A stretch of DNA of 64,000 nt, taken from assembly GCA_050298055.1 (NCBI GenBank), contig JBNKTL010000025.1, forward strand, positions 1 to 64,000, read 5' to 3'. Positions 53,096-63,143 of this stretch are shown piece by piece. The notes beneath the pieces were generated by a model, which saw nothing but the letters and a program-made list of their open reading frames with translations, was not told the origin of the DNA and searched no databases. Positions within the stretch are counted from its first letter, which is position 1, and the number at the start of each line of letters is the position of its first letter. The stretch comes from Spirochaetota bacterium (GTDB lineage: Bacteria; Spirochaetota; UBA4802; UBA5550). A program made the translations under genes and the position numbers.

Positions 53096-56077
53096 ATGAT
53101 GAAAATATACCTGGTTTTTAAAGATGAAAAATCCTCAAAATTCTGGCAGATCGAAGTTAAGGGGAAAAAACACACGGTTACCTTTGGTAAAACCGGGACA
53201 AAAGGACAATCGAAGGATAAAGAATTTAACTCGAAAAAGGAAGCCGAAGAAGATGCGGAAAAACTGATCACACAAAAATTAAAAAAGGGGTATGAGAAAA
53301 TATCCGCTCCCGGAAAGACCGGTGTTGTATCTGAAAAGAAAACGAAAAAAGCCACTGTAAAAAAAACGGCTGCAAAGATCAAAGCTGACGGAGGTAAAGG
53401 GGAGAAGAAAGCAGCCAAAAAGACGGTCAAAAAGACTGTGAAAAAGGTTGTTAAAAAAGCTGTGAAAAAAGCAGCTCTAAAGAGTGTGAAAAAGACGGTA
53501 AAAAAAACAGTGAAAAGGAAAACGGCATCCGGTGAAGATAAAAAATCTCTTAAAATATATGATCATATCTTAAATGCCGGGGACCTGAAACAGGCCCTTG
53601 TTGAACATTTCTCTTTTCTCGCGGATAATAAGGGATTTGAACCGGTGCTTGAAGCAGTGATGGCCCGGGCCCATGAGGTAAATCTTGAGGGAGTAACTCT
53701 GCAGGTTGAATTCCCCGGGAGAAAGACCCTTGTCTGCTCGCCCCCGGCAGACCCCGGTGATTATGCGGCCTGGCCCAAATCATTTCAGAATATCGTAAAG
53801 CATCATGAGACACTTGCCTATCCCGAAACCGGCTGGAGCCTGAACCTGGGGGATGTGGGCAATTTTGAAGTTGAGTTTCTGGAGGACGCGGATTCGGAGC
53901 TTCTGGAATATGTCGATGACCCGTCGGATATCCTCTGCCCCATTACCGATTACTCCGACTGGTGGCTTTACCATCCCTCTGAGGTGAACCCTGCGGGGGA
54001 ACCGGCTCTCTGTTTTTTCAGCCATGAAGGGGGGGATATTGAAGATCCCGTCAACTACAACGCGGGCTCTTACTTTCTCATGCGGATAGCCGGAGACCTG
54101 GGGTGTGAAACGGTGATACCGGAGATAAAAGGGAGCGTTCCGGATGCCGATGAGCTTCTCGCGTGGTATGGTGGACTGGAACCGGCATGGCAGGAGGTCA
54201 TACGGAGAGAAACGGACTCGGAAGATCCCGGCGTGCATATCCTCCACAGGCTTCTCAAAACCAGGGAGATCCATGTCGGAGATTCTGAAATCGATTCCCT
54301 CAAGCCCCTGGAAAAATTTACCCGGCTTGAGGAGCTTACCGCTTTTAATAGTCCCGTAACTTCACTTGAGGGGACCTCCCATTTAAAAGGACTCAAAAAG
54401 CTTAAGCTGGACAATACAAAGATTACGGATTTCACTCTTCTCGAAAATTTTCCCCGGCTGCAAAAGCTCTCCCTGGATAAATGCGCCTTGAGTTCCGTCA
54501 CGGATCTGCCGCTGCTGCCCGTTCTCAGGGAGCTGGAAATAAATAATACGGGTATACGGGACCTCGGCGGGGTGGAAAGGTTCAAAAAGCTGGAGGCGTT
54601 GGAGTTTGATAATACCGGGGTTTCAAGCATGGAACCCCTGAGATCTCTGAAGGGGATCAATCATGTAAGCTTCTCCCATACATCCGTCAGCGACCTCTCC
54701 CCTCTTTACGGGAAAAAGGAGATGCATGCCCTAGTGTGCCAGAACGCCCCTGTTCCGTTAGTAGAGCTTTTAAATTTTAATGCCTCAATTGTTGAGGGTG
54801 AGAATGATGAGTTGATTCCCTTCTTCGGGTTGGTCCTTTTTGCGGATGCCACGGAAGATGACAAAATCCTCAGAGAGGGAATTACCGGTCTGCCCCGGCT
54901 TAACGGGGAACAATGCGATATCCTGGGAAAGCTGGTAAACGAGAGGCTCGTATCCCGGTTGAAAAAAGAGGAATATGAGGAGGCGATAGATCTTTTAGAG
55001 GCCTTCCTGGATCTGCCGGCCATTGAGCTCTCTGAGAATATCCGGGCTGAGCTCGGGGGAAACTCCATGATTCTTGTCATTAACTTCACGGGGAAAGACC
55101 TCGCCGAAAAGGTTTTTTCGCGGCTGGTCCCGGAAGAGGTAAAAGAAAAGCGCCTTGCCTATAACCTGGCATGCTGGTACGCGGGGGAAAAGGAGAAGGA
55201 GCAAATGCTCAGGTTTACAAAGACCGCGCTGGAACTGGGGTTCGAAACAGAGCGGTTCGGTGAGAAGGATTTTGACAATTTCAGGGAGGACCCTGATTTT
55301 ATTGAACTCATATCAAAACCGCAAGTCCCCGATCCCAGGGTAGATCCGGAGAAATGGTTCAGCCTGTTGAACGAGGAAACCCGGGAGTGCCTTATCTGGA
55401 AAGCCGGGAACGGTAATGAACCGGATTTTAAAAAGATCCTGGATCTTGAAGAGCTTCACGGCCTTCGGGATGTCACGTCCCTGGAGCCCTTTCGGTACCT
55501 GACAAAGCTTAAAAAACTGAGTGTCGAATACAGTTCTTATTCCAGTATCGAACCGCTGAAGGACCTGGTGAACCTTGAAGAACTGAAACTGACGGGGGAA
55601 CATTATACGGACAATAAAAAAATCGTCAATATAGAACCCCTTGCGAACCTGACGAAGCTGCGGGAGCTGGTTGTTACCAATCAGAAAGTCGATGATATCG
55701 GCCCGTTGAAAAATCTGAAAAATCTCAGGACCCTGGATCTCACTGCCAACAATATAACTGACATTACCCCCCTGGGGGGACTTGTGAAGCTGGAGGATTT
55801 GAGTCTCCGCGGAAACAGGATCGGGGATCTTCATCTTATCGCAGACCTGAAGGAGTTAACCCGGCTGGATGTTATTCTCCCCGGGAATTCCGATTTTGAA
55901 TTTATCCGGGGGTTGAAAAAACTGACAAATCTCTGGGCGGGAGACGCTGTCACCTCACTGGAGCCCTTTGAGGACCTTCCGGATTTGACCTATCTCTGTC
56001 TTTCAGGGAGGAAAATTGATCCCGGGGAGGCTGAGGACTTTCAGAAGCGGCATCCCCATTGTGATTTGGAGATATAG
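53096..56077 (+). CDS. WGR - Lys-rich linker - SUKH/SMI1-like - LRR - TPR - LRR mosaic protein
   Basis: KSSKFWQIE..FGKTGTKGQ..KLKKGY (WGR); KKTVKK repeats; internalin-type LRRs; YNLACWYA..DFDNFREDPDF TPR cap. Confidence 0.85.
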   Translation: MMKIYLVFKDEKSSKFWQIEVKGKKHTVTFGKTGTKGQSKDKEFNSKKEAEEDAEKLITQKLKKGYEKISAPGKTGVVSEKKTKKATVKKTAAKIKADGGKGEKKAAKKTVKKTVKKVVKKAVKKAALKSVKKTVKKTVKRKTASGEDKKSLKIYDHILNAGDLKQALVEHFSFLADNKGFEPVLEAVMARAHEVNLEGVTLQVEFPGRKTLVCSPPADPGDYAAWPKSFQNIVKHHETLAYPETGWSLNLGDVGNFEVEFLEDADSELLEYVDDPSDILCPITDYSDWWLYHPSEVNPAGEPALCFFSHEGGDIEDPVNYNAGSYFLMRIAGDLGCETVIPEIKGSVPDADELLAWYGGLEPAWQEVIRRETDSEDPGVHILHRLLKTREIHVGDSEIDSLKPLEKFTRLEELTAFNSPVTSLEGTSHLKGLKKLKLDNTKITDFTLLENFPRLQKLSLDKCALSSVTDLPLLPVLRELEINNTGIRDLGGVERFKKLEALEFDNTGVSSMEPLRSLKGINHVSFSHTSVSDLSPLYGKKEMHALVCQNAPVPLVELLNFNASIVEGENDELIPFFGLVLFADATEDDKILREGITGLPRLNGEQCDILGKLVNERLVSRLKKEEYEEAIDLLEAFLDLPAIELSENIRAELGGNSMILVINFTGKDLAEKVFSRLVPEEVKEKRLAYNLACWYAGEKEKEQMLRFTKTALELGFETERFGEKDFDNFREDPDFIELISKPQVPDPRVDPEKWFSLLNEETRECLIWKAGNGNEPDFKKILDLEELHGLRDVTSLEPFRYLTKLKKLSVEYSSYSSIEPLKDLVNLEELKLTGEHYTDNKKIVNIEPLANLTKLRELVVTNQKVDDIGPLKNLKNLRTLDLTANNITDITPLGGLVKLEDLSLRGNRIGDLHLIADLKELTRLDVILPGNSDFEFIRGLKKLTNLWAGDAVTSLEPFEDLPDLTYLCLSGRKIDPGEAEDFQKRHPHCDLEI

Positions 56078-56433: not shown

Positions 56434-57291
56434 TTACTCCTGACCGGTTTTTTGTAATTCCTGTATCTGGTACTGTTTCGGGGTCAGGCCGAACCTGTTG
56501 GTGAACAGCTTGATAAAATGTGAGATGCTGTCGTACCCGAGATCAAAGGAGGTCTCTGTTACCGAATGATGTTTCAGTATTTCTTTTGCTTTGTTGAGTT
56601 TGATACAGGTAAAATAAGCATTAGGAGACATCCCGGTTATTTTCTTAAATTTCATTGAAAAGAGGGCGGGAGACATATAAAGGGAGGAAGCGATCTCCCT
56701 GATGTTGAGGTTTTCCCGGTAATTGTTCTTCATGATCCGAATCGCTTTTGAGACCGGGTTTCCGGGGTTTTGATGAAGAAAGCCTTTCGCCCCGGCGGAA
56801 CTCAGGATCTTAAAAACCATCTCCTGGCCGTATAGGTCGACCAGGAACTCCTTTCCGGAGTTGTTTGAAAGGGCGGTCCAGGAAATTTTGTCCAGGTCTG
56901 TCCTGATGAGCTCCGTGTTTTCCCTGAAAACAAATTCAACTTTTTTATCTATGGGGATATTGTTAATTTCAAGATCATCACAGACCTTGTTGCTGATGGT
57001 CTCGATCAGCTTATCGCTCACTTCAAAAACAAGGCAGTTAGTGGGAACGGACATTTCCATTGAAACCCGGGATTCCGGGGGGAGGATAATAAACTGGTCT
57101 TTGTCATAGGTAAAACCTTCCCTCCGGTCAATTTCCACGGTTTTTTCGCCGCGGAGTACCGTACAGATCCTGTAATACTCGTATGAATAATACCAGTCCT
57201 TGTAGTAGTGAGGAAAGTCATAGTAGAGAACTCTCATGTGCTCGGTCTCAAGACCTTCCGCAAATTCAATTTTTCTATCGAAGCAGTCCAT
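56434..57291 (-). CDS. AraC-family transcriptional regulator
   Basis: Cupin-like N-terminus; IASSLYMS..FKKITGMSP..LGYDSISHFIKLF..FGLTPKQY; divergent from the AOR gene. Confidence 0.92.
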   Translation of the reverse strand: MDCFDRKIEFAEGLETEHMRVLYYDFPHYYKDWYYSYEYYRICTVLRGEKTVEIDRREGFTYDKDQFIILPPESRVSMEMSVPTNCLVFEVSDKLIETISNKVCDDLEINNIPIDKKVEFVFRENTELIRTDLDKISWTALSNNSGKEFLVDLYGQEMVFKILSSAGAKGFLHQNPGNPVSKAIRIMKNNYRENLNIREIASSLYMSPALFSMKFKKITGMSPNAYFTCIKLNKAKEILKHHSVTETSFDLGYDSISHFIKLFTNRFGLTPKQYQIQELQKTGQE

Positions 57292-57551
57292 GTGGATAAT
57301 CAGGATTTGCGGTCACCATGACCGGTGACAAAAAAATCAATTATTTAATATTGTGTTACTTTTTTTAATTATGAATTAGATTAACTTTTCTTCTTTTTTT
57401 ATTATTGGAGAGAGTAACTGGATTTAATCAATGAAAAAAATTAATTTTATCAATAATTCTTTTAAAAAAAATTACTCAAAGCCCGGCTATGTTAGTATTT
57501 GTAAAAATTTGTAATTTTTCAGACATATAATTTTATTTTAAGGAGGATACT

Positions 57552-59294
57552 ATGGATAAAATATTGAGAGTTAATATGGGAGCGAAAGACGGCCCGGAGA
57601 TAAAGACGGAAAATCCCGGTCCCTATGCCGGACTGGGAGGACGGGCCATGACCACATCCGTCATTTCGGCCGAAGTTCCTCCGCTCTGCCATCCCCTTGG
57701 TGCGGAAAACAAGCTGGTTATTGCGCCGGGACTTTTGAGCGGGACTTCCGCGTCAATGTCCGGACGCCTTTCGGTGGGATGCAAAAGCCCCCTTACGGGA
57801 GGCATCAAGGAAGCGAACTCCGGGGGACAGGGGGCGCATACTCTTGCCCGTCTCGGTTACGCGGCCATTGTTCTTGAAGGTGTTCCCCGGGGGGATGATC
57901 TCTATAAAATGTTCATCAATAAAGACGGGGTAAAAATCGAAAAGGACAACAGCCTGAAACTGCTGACAAACTATGACCTTGTGGACAAAATGAAAAAAGA
58001 ATACGGGGATAAAATAACCTGCATCTCAATAGGCCCCGCCGGAGAGATGAAGCTGGGGGCCGCATCTATTGCCGTCACGGACCTGGAACTTCGTCCCACG
58101 CGCCATGCCGGCCGCGGAGGCGTTGGAGCGGTCATGGGGGCAAAAAGGCTCAAAGTTATCGTCATGGACGACAGCGGGGCAAAGAACAGGGAACCGAAGG
58201 ACCTGGAGAAATTCAGGGAGGCGAATAAAAAATGGGTGGAAGGCCTTAACAATCACGCGGTCACCGGCCAGGCATTGCCCGCTTACGGTACAAATGTCCT
58301 TACGAACATCATAAACGAAGCCGGGGGATATCCCACCTGCAATTTCAGTGAAGGACAGTTCGAGGGGGCCGCGAAAATAAGCGGTGAAACATTTGCCGAA
58401 ATGGAAGAGAGCCGCGGAGGAAAAGGAAGCGCCACGCACCCGTGCCACCGGGGTTGTGTGATCAAATGTTCAGGGACATATTATGACAATAAAGGGAACT
58501 TCGTTTCCAAGCAGCCTGAGTATGAAACCGTCTGGGCCCACGGCGGGAACTGCGGGATAGATGATCCCGATGCCATCGCGCAGCTGGATTTCCTTGACGA
58601 TACATACGGTATTGATACCATTGAAATGGGAGCGACCATAGGCGTGGCAATGCAGGCCGGTATCGCCGAATTTGGTGACGCGGAAGCTGCCATCGACCTT
58701 GTCAGGGAGGTCGGCAAGGGGACTCCCCTGGGCAAAATACTGGGAAGCGGGGCGGCGGTGACCGGAAAAGTTTTCGGTGTGGAGAAAGTCCCGGTTGTGA
58801 AAGGCCAGGCGCTTCCGGCATATGATCCGCGTTCAATTCAGGGTATCGGGGTAACTTACGCAACCAGTACCATGGGGGCGGACCATACGGCGGGATACGC
58901 TATCGCAACCAACATATTAAAGAGCGGAGGTTTTGTTGATCCTTTAAAAACAGAAGGGCAGACCGATCTTTCGCGCAACCTGCAGATAGCAACTGCGGCT
59001 ATTGATTCCACAGGGATGTGTCTTTTTATCGCTTTTGCTATTCTTGATCAGCCCGAGACTTTCCAGGCTCTGCTGGATTTACTGAACTCCTGTTACGGGT
59101 TATCGCTTACAGGGGATGATGTAACTGAGCTTGGGAAAAAGGTCCTTAAAATGGAAAGGGACTTTAACAAAGAAGCCGGATTTACCAGGGAACATGACAG
59201 GCTTCCGCGGTTCTTTTCCCGGGAGCCCCTGAAGCCTCATAATTTAACTTTTATGGTTGAAGATTCGGAGCTTGATTCTGTATACAACTGGTAA
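57552..59294 (+). CDS. aor: Aldehyde:ferredoxin oxidoreductase (tungsten family)
   Basis: ILRVNM, KSPLTGGIKEANSGG, AGRGGVGAVMG.K.LK, CHRGCVIKC, EYET, GIDTI, YDPR, GADH. Confidence 0.93.
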   Translation: MDKILRVNMGAKDGPEIKTENPGPYAGLGGRAMTTSVISAEVPPLCHPLGAENKLVIAPGLLSGTSASMSGRLSVGCKSPLTGGIKEANSGGQGAHTLARLGYAAIVLEGVPRGDDLYKMFINKDGVKIEKDNSLKLLTNYDLVDKMKKEYGDKITCISIGPAGEMKLGAASIAVTDLELRPTRHAGRGGVGAVMGAKRLKVIVMDDSGAKNREPKDLEKFREANKKWVEGLNNHAVTGQALPAYGTNVLTNIINEAGGYPTCNFSEGQFEGAAKISGETFAEMEESRGGKGSATHPCHRGCVIKCSGTYYDNKGNFVSKQPEYETVWAHGGNCGIDDPDAIAQLDFLDDTYGIDTIEMGATIGVAMQAGIAEFGDAEAAIDLVREVGKGTPLGKILGSGAAVTGKVFGVEKVPVVKGQALPAYDPRSIQGIGVTYATSTMGADHTAGYAIATNILKSGGFVDPLKTEGQTDLSRNLQIATAAIDSTGMCLFIAFAILDQPETFQALLDLLNSCYGLSLTGDDVTELGKKVLKMERDFNKEAGFTREHDRLPRFFSREPLKPHNLTFMVEDSELDSVYNW

Positions 59295-59905: not shown

Positions 59906-60475
59906 CTACCCCTGAACCTCCCCGTACCTGAAACAGTCCGTGGTATGGTCATTGACCATCCCCGTTGCCTGCATATGGGCGTAAACGATGGTTGAACCCA
60001 CGAATTTGAATCCTCTCTTCTTCAAATCCCTGCTGATCCTGTCCGATAATTCGGTCTTTGCGGGAATCTCGGATATTGATTTGAACCTGTTTATCACAGG
60101 TTTCCCCCCGGTAAAAGCCCAGATATACCTGCCGAAGGAACCGAATTCCTCCCGGACCCGGATAAAAGCCCGGGCATTGGTTTTTGCGGCGTTTACTTTC
60201 AGCTTATTACGGATGATACCCTCGTCCAGGAGAAGTGCATCGATTTTCTTTTGGTCGTATTCCGCGATTATGTTATAGTCAAAATGATCAAATGCCCGGC
60301 GAAAGTTCTCCCGTTTTTTCAGGATAGTGAGCCAGCTGAGCCCGGCCTGAAATCCTTCGAGGATCAGAAACTCAAAGATGGTTTTGTCATCGTAGACGGG
60401 AACTCCCCACTCTTCATCGTGGTACCTGTGGTAAAGAGGATTTGAATCCGCCCACTGGCATCGTATTTTACTCAT
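59906..60475 (-). CDS. tag: DNA-3-methyladenine glycosylase I
   Basis: RCQW..YHDEEWG..EGFQAGLSW..IIRNKLK..GFKFVGST..NDH..C. Confidence 0.96.
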   Translation of the reverse strand: MSKIRCQWADSNPLYHRYHDEEWGVPVYDDKTIFEFLILEGFQAGLSWLTILKKRENFRRAFDHFDYNIIAEYDQKKIDALLLDEGIIRNKLKVNAAKTNARAFIRVREEFGSFGRYIWAFTGGKPVINRFKSISEIPAKTELSDRISRDLKKRGFKFVGSTIVYAHMQATGMVNDHTTDCFRYGEVQG

Positions 60476-60560: not shown

Positions 60561-61544
60561 TTACAGCAGTCTCTTCATCCTCTTGATCTGCCTTCCCTCG
60601 AAGATCCCCTCATCCAGAAAGTAATTCCTGATATCCCTGGGGATGAACTTGAAGAGATTTTCCGTGATGACGAATGTTCCCGGTTTTGCGAATTTCTGGC
60701 CCAAGTGAAATACGGAGTTAACGGAATCGGAGACCACTTCTCCCGTATTCCCCCTTTCCTTGTACTCGATATTGCCGATGTGAAGGGCGGTCCTGAATGA
60801 AAGAGAATCGTCATAGCTGAACTCTTCCGCCATGATGATCCTGATATCCATATAGAATTTGAATATTGAGAGCAGGGGATGACATTTCGTTCCGTCAAAG
60901 GGGAAAAGGAGAAGACCGCCAAAATCCATCCAGATCCAGACCCTTCCGTTGATCTGTGAGAACTTTCGCGCAACCAGGTCCCGGAATTCTGAAACAAATT
61001 TTCCGGTGTTAATATCACCATATTTCCCCTTGATCTCCCCCTGGTTATCAAGCTCGATAAACATGAGGCAGAAGCTGTATTCCCGCTCCGGTTTGATCTC
61101 TTTCCAGTCGGTCCCCGATGAGATGAAGTTCTCGAATACGGTTTCATCCTCCGGGGTCCCCGCCTCTTCGCCGTGGATTGTCTTTATATAATCAAGTACA
61201 GCTTTTATTCTCTTTAAAGAAATTTTACTCTTTAGCTGCTCTTTGCCTATATAGTCTGCGGCCCCGGAGTGAAAGATATCCGCCACATCTTTAACGATCC
61301 CCTTTGGGTCGATGATCCCGAAATAGACATTTTCAAGTTTTGAGAGAAGAGAGATGTTTTTTTTCAGTTCGGGATGCGTGAGTTTTCCCGCATCGAGGTA
61401 GACCAGGGATTCCTTATCGATCTCCCTGATCTTTTTTTTCATGCAGGCGGGAGGTTCAACGGTAACGCTGTTTCCCTTTGATTTCCCGATGGCGGAAAAG
61501 AGATCTTCAATTTTACTGTTATCGGTAAAGATGAAAAGCTGCAT
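60561..61544 (-). CDS. REC-like domain + degenerate class III nucleotide cyclase domain
   Basis: IFHSGAADYIGK (REC-like); GRVWIWMDFGGLLLF, FRTALHIG, SDSVNSVFHL, AKPG. Confidence 0.8.
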   Translation of the reverse strand: MQLFIFTDNSKIEDLFSAIGKSKGNSVTVEPPACMKKKIREIDKESLVYLDAGKLTHPELKKNISLLSKLENVYFGIIDPKGIVKDVADIFHSGAADYIGKEQLKSKISLKRIKAVLDYIKTIHGEEAGTPEDETVFENFISSGTDWKEIKPEREYSFCLMFIELDNQGEIKGKYGDINTGKFVSEFRDLVARKFSQINGRVWIWMDFGGLLLFPFDGTKCHPLLSIFKFYMDIRIIMAEEFSYDDSLSFRTALHIGNIEYKERGNTGEVVSDSVNSVFHLGQKFAKPGTFVITENLFKFIPRDIRNYFLDEGIFEGRQIKRMKRLL

Positions 61545-62468
61545 CTACTTCTCCCATTCAAGTTTGTACCTGTAGTATTTTTTCCGGGGGCCAATGTCAA
61601 TGGGCGTCATGCTGTCAGCCAGAATGGGATCGAGGTTGATCCACGCGGTATCGCTGATTGTCACGGTGTTGGGCTCCGTGTACTTCGATTCTATTTCAAT
61701 GATATTTTTAATGGTTTCACTGTCCTTTATAATTTCTTCACTTTCGGTATATTCACAGGCGCCGGTATGTACGGCGACCCTTAGTTCCACATGTTGTTTG
61801 AGTTTACATTCCAGGCAGTTGTAGAGAAAGACCCTGTTAATGATCTCCATGGCGGAAAGCATTGCCTTCTGGTTGCGGTTTGAAAAATGAAAGGCAACAA
61901 GTCCCCCGTCTCCCTCCCAGCTCCAGATTCTTCCATGCCTTTTAATCACAGTCTCTTTGACTATTTCATGGAGGTCGGAATATGTTGATTTTATTGTATT
62001 GTACGGATATTTTTTTACCAGCTTTGTGTTTCCCACAATGTCCAGTCTCAGGAAAGTGAAGATATAGTCTTCACCCTCCAGTAAAACACCCCAGTTCCTG
62101 GTTATTCTGAGGCTGGGGTCTTCCACGAACATCCTGTTTTTTTTGTCATAGAGATATCCGTAATCCTGGATCTCCCTTATCAGGTTCCCGATATTGTTGA
62201 CAGGGTATTTCCTCCCCGTAAGGCCGTTATAATGAACATCTACAAGGAGTGACACAAATTGTGTAAAGAGGTTGTTGGCCTTAATATCACTGACAATCTG
62301 CCGGGCCGCCTCTGTTTTCTGAATGGGGATGTTCTCGGGGATCCCGGTCCTTTTATGAAAATCATATCCCTGAATTAAATGGTTGATGATGACCTTCATA
62401 ATCTGAATGCTGAACGACTCTATGAGAGTTTTCGTGAGGAGAGAATATGTGCTTGTTTTGATCTTCAT
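61545..62468 (-). CDS. Class III nucleotide cyclase domain protein with helical N-terminal domain
   Basis: FLRLDIVGNT, GRIWSWEGDGGLVAF, LRVAVHTG, EPNTVTIS. Confidence 0.85.
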   Translation of the reverse strand: MKIKTSTYSLLTKTLIESFSIQIMKVIINHLIQGYDFHKRTGIPENIPIQKTEAARQIVSDIKANNLFTQFVSLLVDVHYNGLTGRKYPVNNIGNLIREIQDYGYLYDKKNRMFVEDPSLRITRNWGVLLEGEDYIFTFLRLDIVGNTKLVKKYPYNTIKSTYSDLHEIVKETVIKRHGRIWSWEGDGGLVAFHFSNRNQKAMLSAMEIINRVFLYNCLECKLKQHVELRVAVHTGACEYTESEEIIKDSETIKNIIEIESKYTEPNTVTISDTAWINLDPILADSMTPIDIGPRKKYYRYKLEWEK

Positions 62469-62618
62469 TGGCGTTTATCATGAAATATAAAGGCCAGTTT
62501 TGTCAAATAATTATTGTAATCGTGTCTATATGAAACATTTACTCCCCTTTTCACATTAACTGTCAAGAAAGCCTCTTTTATGAACGATAAGTAATAAAAG
62601 GGACCTCAATAAAGAAGA

Positions 62619-63143
62619 ATGCTCATGAATGACCAGGGGATAACTATGAAAGTTCAAAAGGTTTTTACCGGATTTATCACTCTTCTTATTTTTACCGGTT
62701 TTACCGTTGTTACCGGCTGTTCAAAGAAAATTGTACGGACGGGGAGCGGAAAGACCGTGGACGCTGCGGGAAATACCGTTACTTCACCGGAAGAGATACT
62801 GAAGTATACCGGAACATACAGGGTTGAACTTCCGGGATACAAAGGGATCTTAACACTGAGATATAACAGGGAGTCGGGAAAGTCCACGGGAGAGATACTC
62901 TTTCCCGGCTGGGGAACGGGGAAACCGCAGCCTCTGAAAAAACTGAGCATTAAGGATGACAGGATATACTTCGAAAGGTCCGTGGAAACAGCGGCAGAAC
63001 TCAGGGAGTACGGGGGGTCCCGGTATTTCAGGCAGAAGTATTACGGAAAGTTTTCCCGTGACAGGTCCGAGGTCAAGGGAGAGTTTACGGATTCAGGCGC
63101 CGTTTATAACTGGAGGGCCGGGAGACAGGGGTCCCGGGATTGA
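62619..63143 (+). CDS. Putative lipoprotein
   Basis: Signal with VTGC lipobox-like motif; beta-rich body; start probably 62646. Confidence 0.75.
   Translation: MLMNDQGITMKVQKVFTGFITLLIFTGFTVVTGCSKKIVRTGSGKTVDAAGNTVTSPEEILKYTGTYRVELPGYKGILTLRYNRESGKSTGEILFPGWGTGKPQPLKKLSIKDDRIYFERSVETAAELREYGGSRYFRQKYYGKFSRDRSEVKGEFTDSGAVYNWRAGRQGSRD

Follow-up and report, generated by a model that had tools for sequence, protein, structure and literature searches.

Two abutting genes of a Spirochaetota bacterium (contig JBNKTL010000025.1; the window is the whole stretch of DNA analysed, 64,000 nucleotides, positions 1 to 64,000) each encode what resembles one half of a class III nucleotide cyclase. The question raised by this locus is whether the two products combine into a single enzyme and, if so, what that enzyme makes. 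The features concerned, in window coordinates, are:

61545..62468, minus strand: gene A (307 aa), a helical N-terminal domain and a C1-like (metal-binding) class III cyclase half
62103..62468, minus strand: N-terminal domain of A (aa 1-122)
61548..62102, minus strand: cyclase domain of A, metal Asp kept, Asn/His motif lost
62040-62042 and 61908-61910, minus strand: codons of the metal Asp residues D143 and D187 of A
60561..61544, minus strand: gene B (327 aa), a C2-like class III cyclase half (transition-state residues) following an atypical receiver domain
61170..61544, minus strand: receiver-like domain of B (aa 1-125)
60564..61118, minus strand: cyclase domain of B, Asn/His kept, metal Asp pair absent
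60717-60719 and 60705-60707, minus strand: codons of N276 and H280 of B
62477..62506, minus strand: match to a sigma-70-like consensus (TTGACA-18-CATGAT) a short way upstream of A (pattern match only)
59906-60475, minus strand: 3-methyladenine DNA glycosylase gene, flanking the pair downstream
62619-63143, plus strand: gene for a LIC20036-like protein (match below the cut-off), divergent, upstream of the pair

The stop codon of A (61547-61545) is followed directly by the ATG of B (61544-61542), so that the zero gap reported in an earlier sequence-only reading of this DNA is correct. The scan for sigma-70-like patterns returned 12 sites, against 6.3 +/- 2.5 in shuffles.

Fold and relationship of the two proteins

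The cyclase domains of A and B can be aligned with each other, as the earlier reading held (BLASTP E 8e-13, 21% identity; profile-profile probability 99.3), and both are predicted to adopt the class III palm fold. AlphaFold2 models with a mean pLDDT of 93.5 for A (107 homologues) and 88.5 for B (92 homologues) retrieve class III cyclases in Foldseek (E ~1e-9 and 3e-8, respectively), and in VIA the model of A superimposes on Cya2 (2w01) with a Z of 21.4 and an rmsd of 2.4 over 174 aligned residues. In the proposed comparison with PF00211, neither protein matches this family, nor does either match an informative NCBIfam model. Among relatives, PF00211 is weakly matched in 12/107; a few intact relatives are barely over the cut-off. 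The clade is Trp-rich, with two conserved Trp in the beta2-beta3 hairpin.

Reciprocal loss of catalytic residues

With the residue register fixed by alignments to 3mr7 and 7r65, A has the metal Asp residues D143 and D187 and also keeps E185, G186, G188, R230 and E260, but its Asn position is taken by K254, its Arg position by E258 and its base-selecting Lys position by S183, and the C-terminal [FY]EG[RK] hairpin is missing. B has E164 and F208 at the two Asp positions and I204 at the base-selecting position, and keeps N276, H280, G268, S272, D273 and F315-E316-G317-R318. The residues given for A in the earlier reading (Asp pair kept, Asn replaced by Lys and Arg by Glu) are thus borne out by the 3mr7 register. 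For B, the loss of the Asp pair and the retention of Asn stand, but the Arg-to-His replacement is not a defect of B, since His is also found at this position in 17/20 intact single-gene relatives; judged from the alignments, it is a family trait.

This division is kept, along with the pairing itself, in homologous loci. After removal of fragments and duplicates, 218 paired loci yielded 157 unique full-length pairs. In these, A has D143, D187 and R230 in all 157 and E260 in 153, but just 9 A proteins have Asn at position 254, and no residue is conserved where the Arg is expected (Glu 58, Asp 25, Gln 20), while the metal Asp pair is found in none of the 157 B proteins (the first Asp position being Glu in 120), which have N276 in 157, H280 in 154, G268 and S272 in 144 each, and the hairpin Glu316 in 142. 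Across these alignments the losses are reciprocal, with the cis catalytic residues gone from B and the trans ones from A, as in a C1/C2-type split cyclase. The pair is real, conserved and subfunctionalised.

Pairing, unpaired relatives and origin

Among the best 80 of 231 GTDB loci (79 of them labelled Spirochaetota), B lies directly after A on the same strand in 77; two of the others are at contig edges and the third (L065) is at a scaffold gap. This 100-N gap begins ~90 nt past A and interrupts the start of B; it is most likely an assembly break, because the 314 nt preceding it are 98% identical to the tail of A and the start of B elsewhere in the same assembly. When metagenome loci are anchored on B instead (best 80 of 152), A is found upstream in 77 and the other three have <=58 nt of upstream sequence. 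The paired loci are kin rather than independent events. In a sample of 301 genomes of the phylum, profiles at E<=0.001 match B in 82 and A in 93 (weak matches included). Matches are dense in the order of the host, and two large families give weak ones or none; within the host's order the pair is found in most genomes, among housekeeping genes. No A-B fusion was found among 7997 longer candidate proteins, which is weak evidence.

The host genome carries a second, diverged A-B pair with the same split (G000:C56:19129-21029, or L151:7130-9045; ~50% and 41% identity). It adjoins a convergent PAS hybrid histidine kinase, and upstream of it are three adjacent genes (L151:3258-6034), the last of which encodes a protein of 484 aa whose motifs suggest an ATP-dependent DNA ligase.

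The search of the phylum gave 29 unpaired rows, of which 20 were analysed and 9 set aside after the alignment had been seen, so that the selection was not blind (two paired-type A proteins at contig or scaffold breaks, three short domain-only sequences and four degenerate ones). The 20 full-length unpaired relatives, which have the N-terminal domain of A, all keep both Asp, the Arg, the Glu and the Asn; they have His in 17 (Lys in 2, Arg in 1), the Gly in 18, the Ser in 20 and the hairpin Arg or Lys in 18. A tendency of homologues to occur unpaired would have counted against the two-gene enzyme; the opposite is seen, and the unpaired homologues mostly keep both halves of the site. The complete motif is also present in many multidomain relatives of a wider library. 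Three of the rows set aside (L128, L161, L162) are A-type proteins that lack the Asn and have no adjacent B; in the two genomes concerned there are intact singles as well, and a B-like single (L121).

Two related genomes, G010 and G024, have 5-6 scattered members each, comprising intact, A-type and B-type singles (L121, L128, L129, L130, L145, L146, L161, L162, L164, L165), which could pair in trans. A wider class III clade (P0303-P0356), mostly invisible to Pfam, has complete sites (WxWxGDGG ... IHSxxINFVxHLE) and fusions to REC, EAD7, TIR, caspase, trypsin, FHA, PRTase, AsnC, DUF5919 and DUF4062 domains.

An unrooted tree built from 102 rows separates A, B and the singles, each being set apart by a single branch (SH-aLRT 87, 54 and 86), support for B as one group being weak; with canonical cyclases as outgroup, the A rows need 5 label changes. 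This topology is compatible with one duplication without proving it, and the split may have arisen by one such duplication and the subfunctionalisation of a homodimeric ancestor.

A probable heterodimer with one working site

In class III cyclases each active site is built from both chains. The equivalents of Arg230 and Glu260 lie on the metal-bearing chain and the C-terminal hairpin on its partner, which fits the partition between A and B. Since each protein has lost catalytic residues that the other keeps, A and B are likely to be an obligate mixed pair, and the locus is best read as encoding an obligate heterodimer in which a single site is predicted to work (we put the probability of this reading at roughly 75%). 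A would supply both metal Asp and the phosphate-binding Arg230 and Glu260, as class III enzymology suggests, and B would supply Asn276, His280 (for Arg), a wall of the base pocket and the C-terminal hairpin. At this site the complex would turn an NTP into a 3',5'-cyclic mononucleotide, and the mirror site would be dead. As B lacks metal binding and A lacks the Asn, the His and the hairpin, the simplest arrangement is that the Asn and His of B act in trans with A; the invariance of N276 and H280 points the same way, since A lost the same residues, which are thus not needed for the fold, and B could not use them with a metal of its own.

In a different explanation, A works by itself as a non-canonical homodimer, and B is a dead paralogue that binds A and inhibits or tunes it under the control of the receiver domain. 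All metal and phosphate residues are kept in A, a few unpaired A-type proteins exist, and inactive cNMP cyclases have been discussed as dominant-negative regulators (PMC7159879). Some class III enzymes, Ma1120 (PMC4215837) and Rv1900c (PMC4886424), are active without the Asn, so that A alone could be active, and this is the main caveat to the heterodimer. However, Ma1120 and Rv1900c keep the Arg whereas A lacks both residues; A has in fact lost the whole trans-acting set kept by intact singles, with a variable Arg position too, and an inhibitor need not keep its Asn in every pair and its His in nearly every one. We therefore regard the dead-paralogue explanation as improbable. We found no measured activity for any member of the Trp-rich clade, intact singles included.

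Covariation is of little help in choosing between these readings. In mean-field DCA (157 pairs, Neff 115) the top A-B z is <=7.3, against 6.5-11.7 in re-paired controls, with a weak signal within chains too, and the mirror-distance correlation of A and B (r=0.91) is what common descent would produce, so that it does not serve as evidence. A sealing of the dead site by salt bridges (R141 and K254 of A with E164 and D166 of B) was considered and rejected: these residues co-occur in 103-108/157 pairs, a figure confounded by descent.

Base selection and possible product

The sequence-only reading placed Ile (B, I204) and Ser (A, S183) at the base-selecting position, which is correct, and concluded that the product might be neither cAMP nor cGMP, which goes too far given that the whole clade lacks the canonical readers. 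In the 157 pairs, position 204 of B, the Lys/Glu position on the Asn-bearing chain, is Met in 92, Ile in 46 and Phe in 10, and the second base-reading position, B269, is variable (Thr 72, Glu 17, His 15, Ser 14, Asn 13); neither canonical signature is therefore present. B does not have the adenylyl combination of Lys with Asp/Thr/Ser on the Asn-bearing chain, and the Glu expected of a guanylyl cyclase at the first base-reading position is found in no pair. Intact singles are also without canonical Lys or Glu readers (Ser in 11/20). Because this holds for the entire clade, cAMP is unsupported rather than excluded and cGMP is a leading candidate.

The sole polar candidate for a base reader that is almost invariant is Glu185 of A, present in 154/157 pairs where singles have Ala or Gln. 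It aligns with D94 of BcPycC, and an aromatic residue of B (position 162; Phe 94, Tyr 34) falls at the position of Y50 by way of the A/B alignment. Y50, D94 and R97 are the UTP readers of BcPycC (PMC11224242; for Asp94 and Tyr50 see also bioRxiv 10.64898/2026.08.12.744502), the R97 position being Gly in A and B. We take the chances that the product is cGMP or a cyclic pyrimidine to be about even; cAMP seems rather unlikely, the use of several NTPs unlikely, and the absence of any cyclic nucleotide product quite improbable.

In another explanation, A and B do form a heterodimer but the clade does not consist of 3',5'-cNMP cyclases, acting instead as a nucleotide sensor or in another palm-domain reaction. 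It would account for the failure of PF00211 to match the two window proteins and for its weak matches among their relatives, for the His in place of Arg, for the missing canonical base readers and the two conserved Trp of the beta2-beta3 hairpin, and for the lack of a receptor gene nearby. Against it, the two Asp, the Arg and the Asn that make up the complete catalytic set are conserved across the pair and in singles, and the best structural matches of the A model in VIA are class III cyclases (Z ~21), well over GGDEF domains (Z ~12), so that this explanation too has little probability.

N-terminal domains and their proposed regulatory role

Within the full-length AlphaFold2 model, the N-terminal domain of A has about six helices and a C-terminal beta-hairpin; it gave no Pfam or PDB match and no usable Atlas match. 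A resemblance to EAD or AbiJ-NTD domains was not supported. The same domain heads the unpaired cyclases and a GHKL-kinase-like protein:

L261:6158-7285, the same as G000:C27:52157-53281 of the host genome (also in L262-L276 and L280): GHKL-kinase-like protein, ~375 aa

The profile of the domain matches this distinct protein of 370-400 aa in 20/301 genomes (E 1e-13 to 1e-18), the host's among them, and all of these belong to the order of the host, and the two N-terminal domains are related with a profile-profile probability of 99.1. The C-terminal part of the protein has the GHKL-type motifs ELxxNA and GAGxGL; HATPase_c_5 is matched weakly, below the cut-off, in 2/9, with no significant Pfam or NCBIfam match, and the family as a whole matches 204/301 genomes (a count that includes N-domain matches). 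Some genomes have the protein but not the pair, and many have the pair but not the protein, so that a shared sensor domain is likelier than an obligatory partner.

The N-terminus of B resembles the NtrC1 receiver (E 0.015). In the 157 pairs, Asp51 is at the phospho-acceptor position in 147, D8 is present in 67, and position 101 is Lys in 77 and Arg in 32; the Thr/Ser switch position is occupied by Asp79 in 142. Phosphorylation is uncertain because of this Asp and the weak acidic pocket. The activity of the proposed heterodimer would be gated by this atypical receiver together with the N-terminal domain of A.

Comparison with known cyclases

A close parallel is mammalian membrane adenylyl cyclase (1CJU/1CS4), each half of which lacks what the other supplies, with the same division of metal Asp and Asn and one working and one dead site (PMC2576301, PMC8815786). 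Its C1/C2 fold is that of A (1cs4, Z 20.2). The spirochaete proteins differ in being encoded by two separate bacterial genes, in being soluble without membrane anchors, in having His at the Arg position and no Lys/Asp adenine readers, and in having an N-terminal domain and a receiver domain in place of G-protein control. Soluble guanylyl cyclase alpha/beta resembles A/B in consisting of two genes with paralogous class III domains and differing N-terminal regulatory domains (PMC2576301), and 3uvj matches the A model with a Z of 19.8; A/B has no H-NOX, PAS or coiled coil and no Glu/Cys guanine readers at the canonical positions, and would have arisen independently, inside a spirochaete clade. 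The fungal rhodopsin guanylyl cyclases (NeoR/RGC1/2) are obligate heterodimers from separate genes, as we propose for A/B, but they are eukaryotic and light-gated, and RGC1/2 keep all catalytic residues (PMC8815786).

Among homodimeric enzymes, CyaB, CyaC, Cya2, Rv1900c and Ma1120 share the fold and the metal Asp motif of A, and the unpaired relatives look like ordinary members of this group, whereas neither A nor B has a complete site. PycC/PucC (7r65, 8jsf, 8jsz) have a non-canonical base pocket, as do A/B, but are homodimers with an adjacent CNBD-TIR or TM effector, which is not seen at the A/B loci, and with R97. According to PMC9552081, bacterial class III cyclases are homodimers and no fused dimers are known in bacteria. 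We found no bacterial two-gene split cyclase in the literature searched, which lay largely outside subscription journals. To our knowledge, the split C1/C2 design has been treated as a eukaryotic invention.

Intact single-gene and split two-gene states stand side by side in one phylum, and sometimes in one genome, so that the origin of cyclase asymmetry can be tested with small soluble proteins. The clade is also invisible to Pfam and without canonical base readers, so that its product may be an unexpected cyclic nucleotide. The organisms concerned have many cNMP receptors; the host genome gave 33 CNBD matches, next to 10 ordinary PF00211 cyclases. A more specific picture is offered only tentatively: an independent spirochaete two-gene, single-site cyclase similar to soluble guanylyl cyclase, acting as an AND gate of an atypical receiver and a new sensor domain common to a GHKL kinase, might serve housekeeping signalling and not defence, with cGMP or a cyclic pyrimidine as its messenger and the dead site as an allosteric pocket.

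Role and genomic neighbourhood

A further explanation is that the pair generates the signal in a defence against phages, of the Pycsar-like or another kind. In its favour, the fusion partners of distant intact relatives include TIR, caspase, trypsin, FHA, EAD7 and DUF4062, domains that are themes of conflict systems (PMC7159879), and A matches the PADLOC PycC model at E 1e-8. Kinship with PycC was nevertheless rejected by a control: the match is generic, because with the same model other spirochaete cyclases reach up to 115 bits (242/301 genomes), far more than the 33 bits of A. There is no CNBD-TIR or TM effector among the recurring neighbours, the pair's place is among the housekeeping genes of most genomes in its order, and a scan of viral contigs found no relative of it. 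A part in defence thus seems very improbable. On plasmids, there are just partial ~27% matches, to Rhizobium cyclase-domain proteins.

More generally, the genes that recur around the pair include no conserved effector, receptor or phosphodiesterase and show no conserved operon context. This favours signalling of a housekeeping kind, and such a role rather than a Pycsar-type one is likely. The recurring neighbours reflect clade-level synteny, and the glycosylase and LIC20036-like genes flanking the pair in the window are not among them. CNBD genes lie near the pair in 5/220 loci, against about 10 expected.

In one clade (L004, L005, L013-L016, L020 and kin) the pair is directly behind a PyrK-like gene (17 loci), with a 2H phosphoesterase nearby (15 loci), and in other clades the gene immediately before the pair encodes a nucleoside phosphorylase (5 loci) or a metallophosphoesterase (4 loci); these neighbourhoods may be plain synteny. 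CNBD-GGDEF genes are near the pair in 3 loci. Elsewhere in the window, an ordinary aldehyde:ferredoxin oxidoreductase gene with a divergent AraC regulator occupies 56434-59294, and a plus-strand gene at 53096-56077 encodes a WGR-domain protein of 993 aa that combines many leucine-rich repeats with a low-complexity linker rich in Lys.
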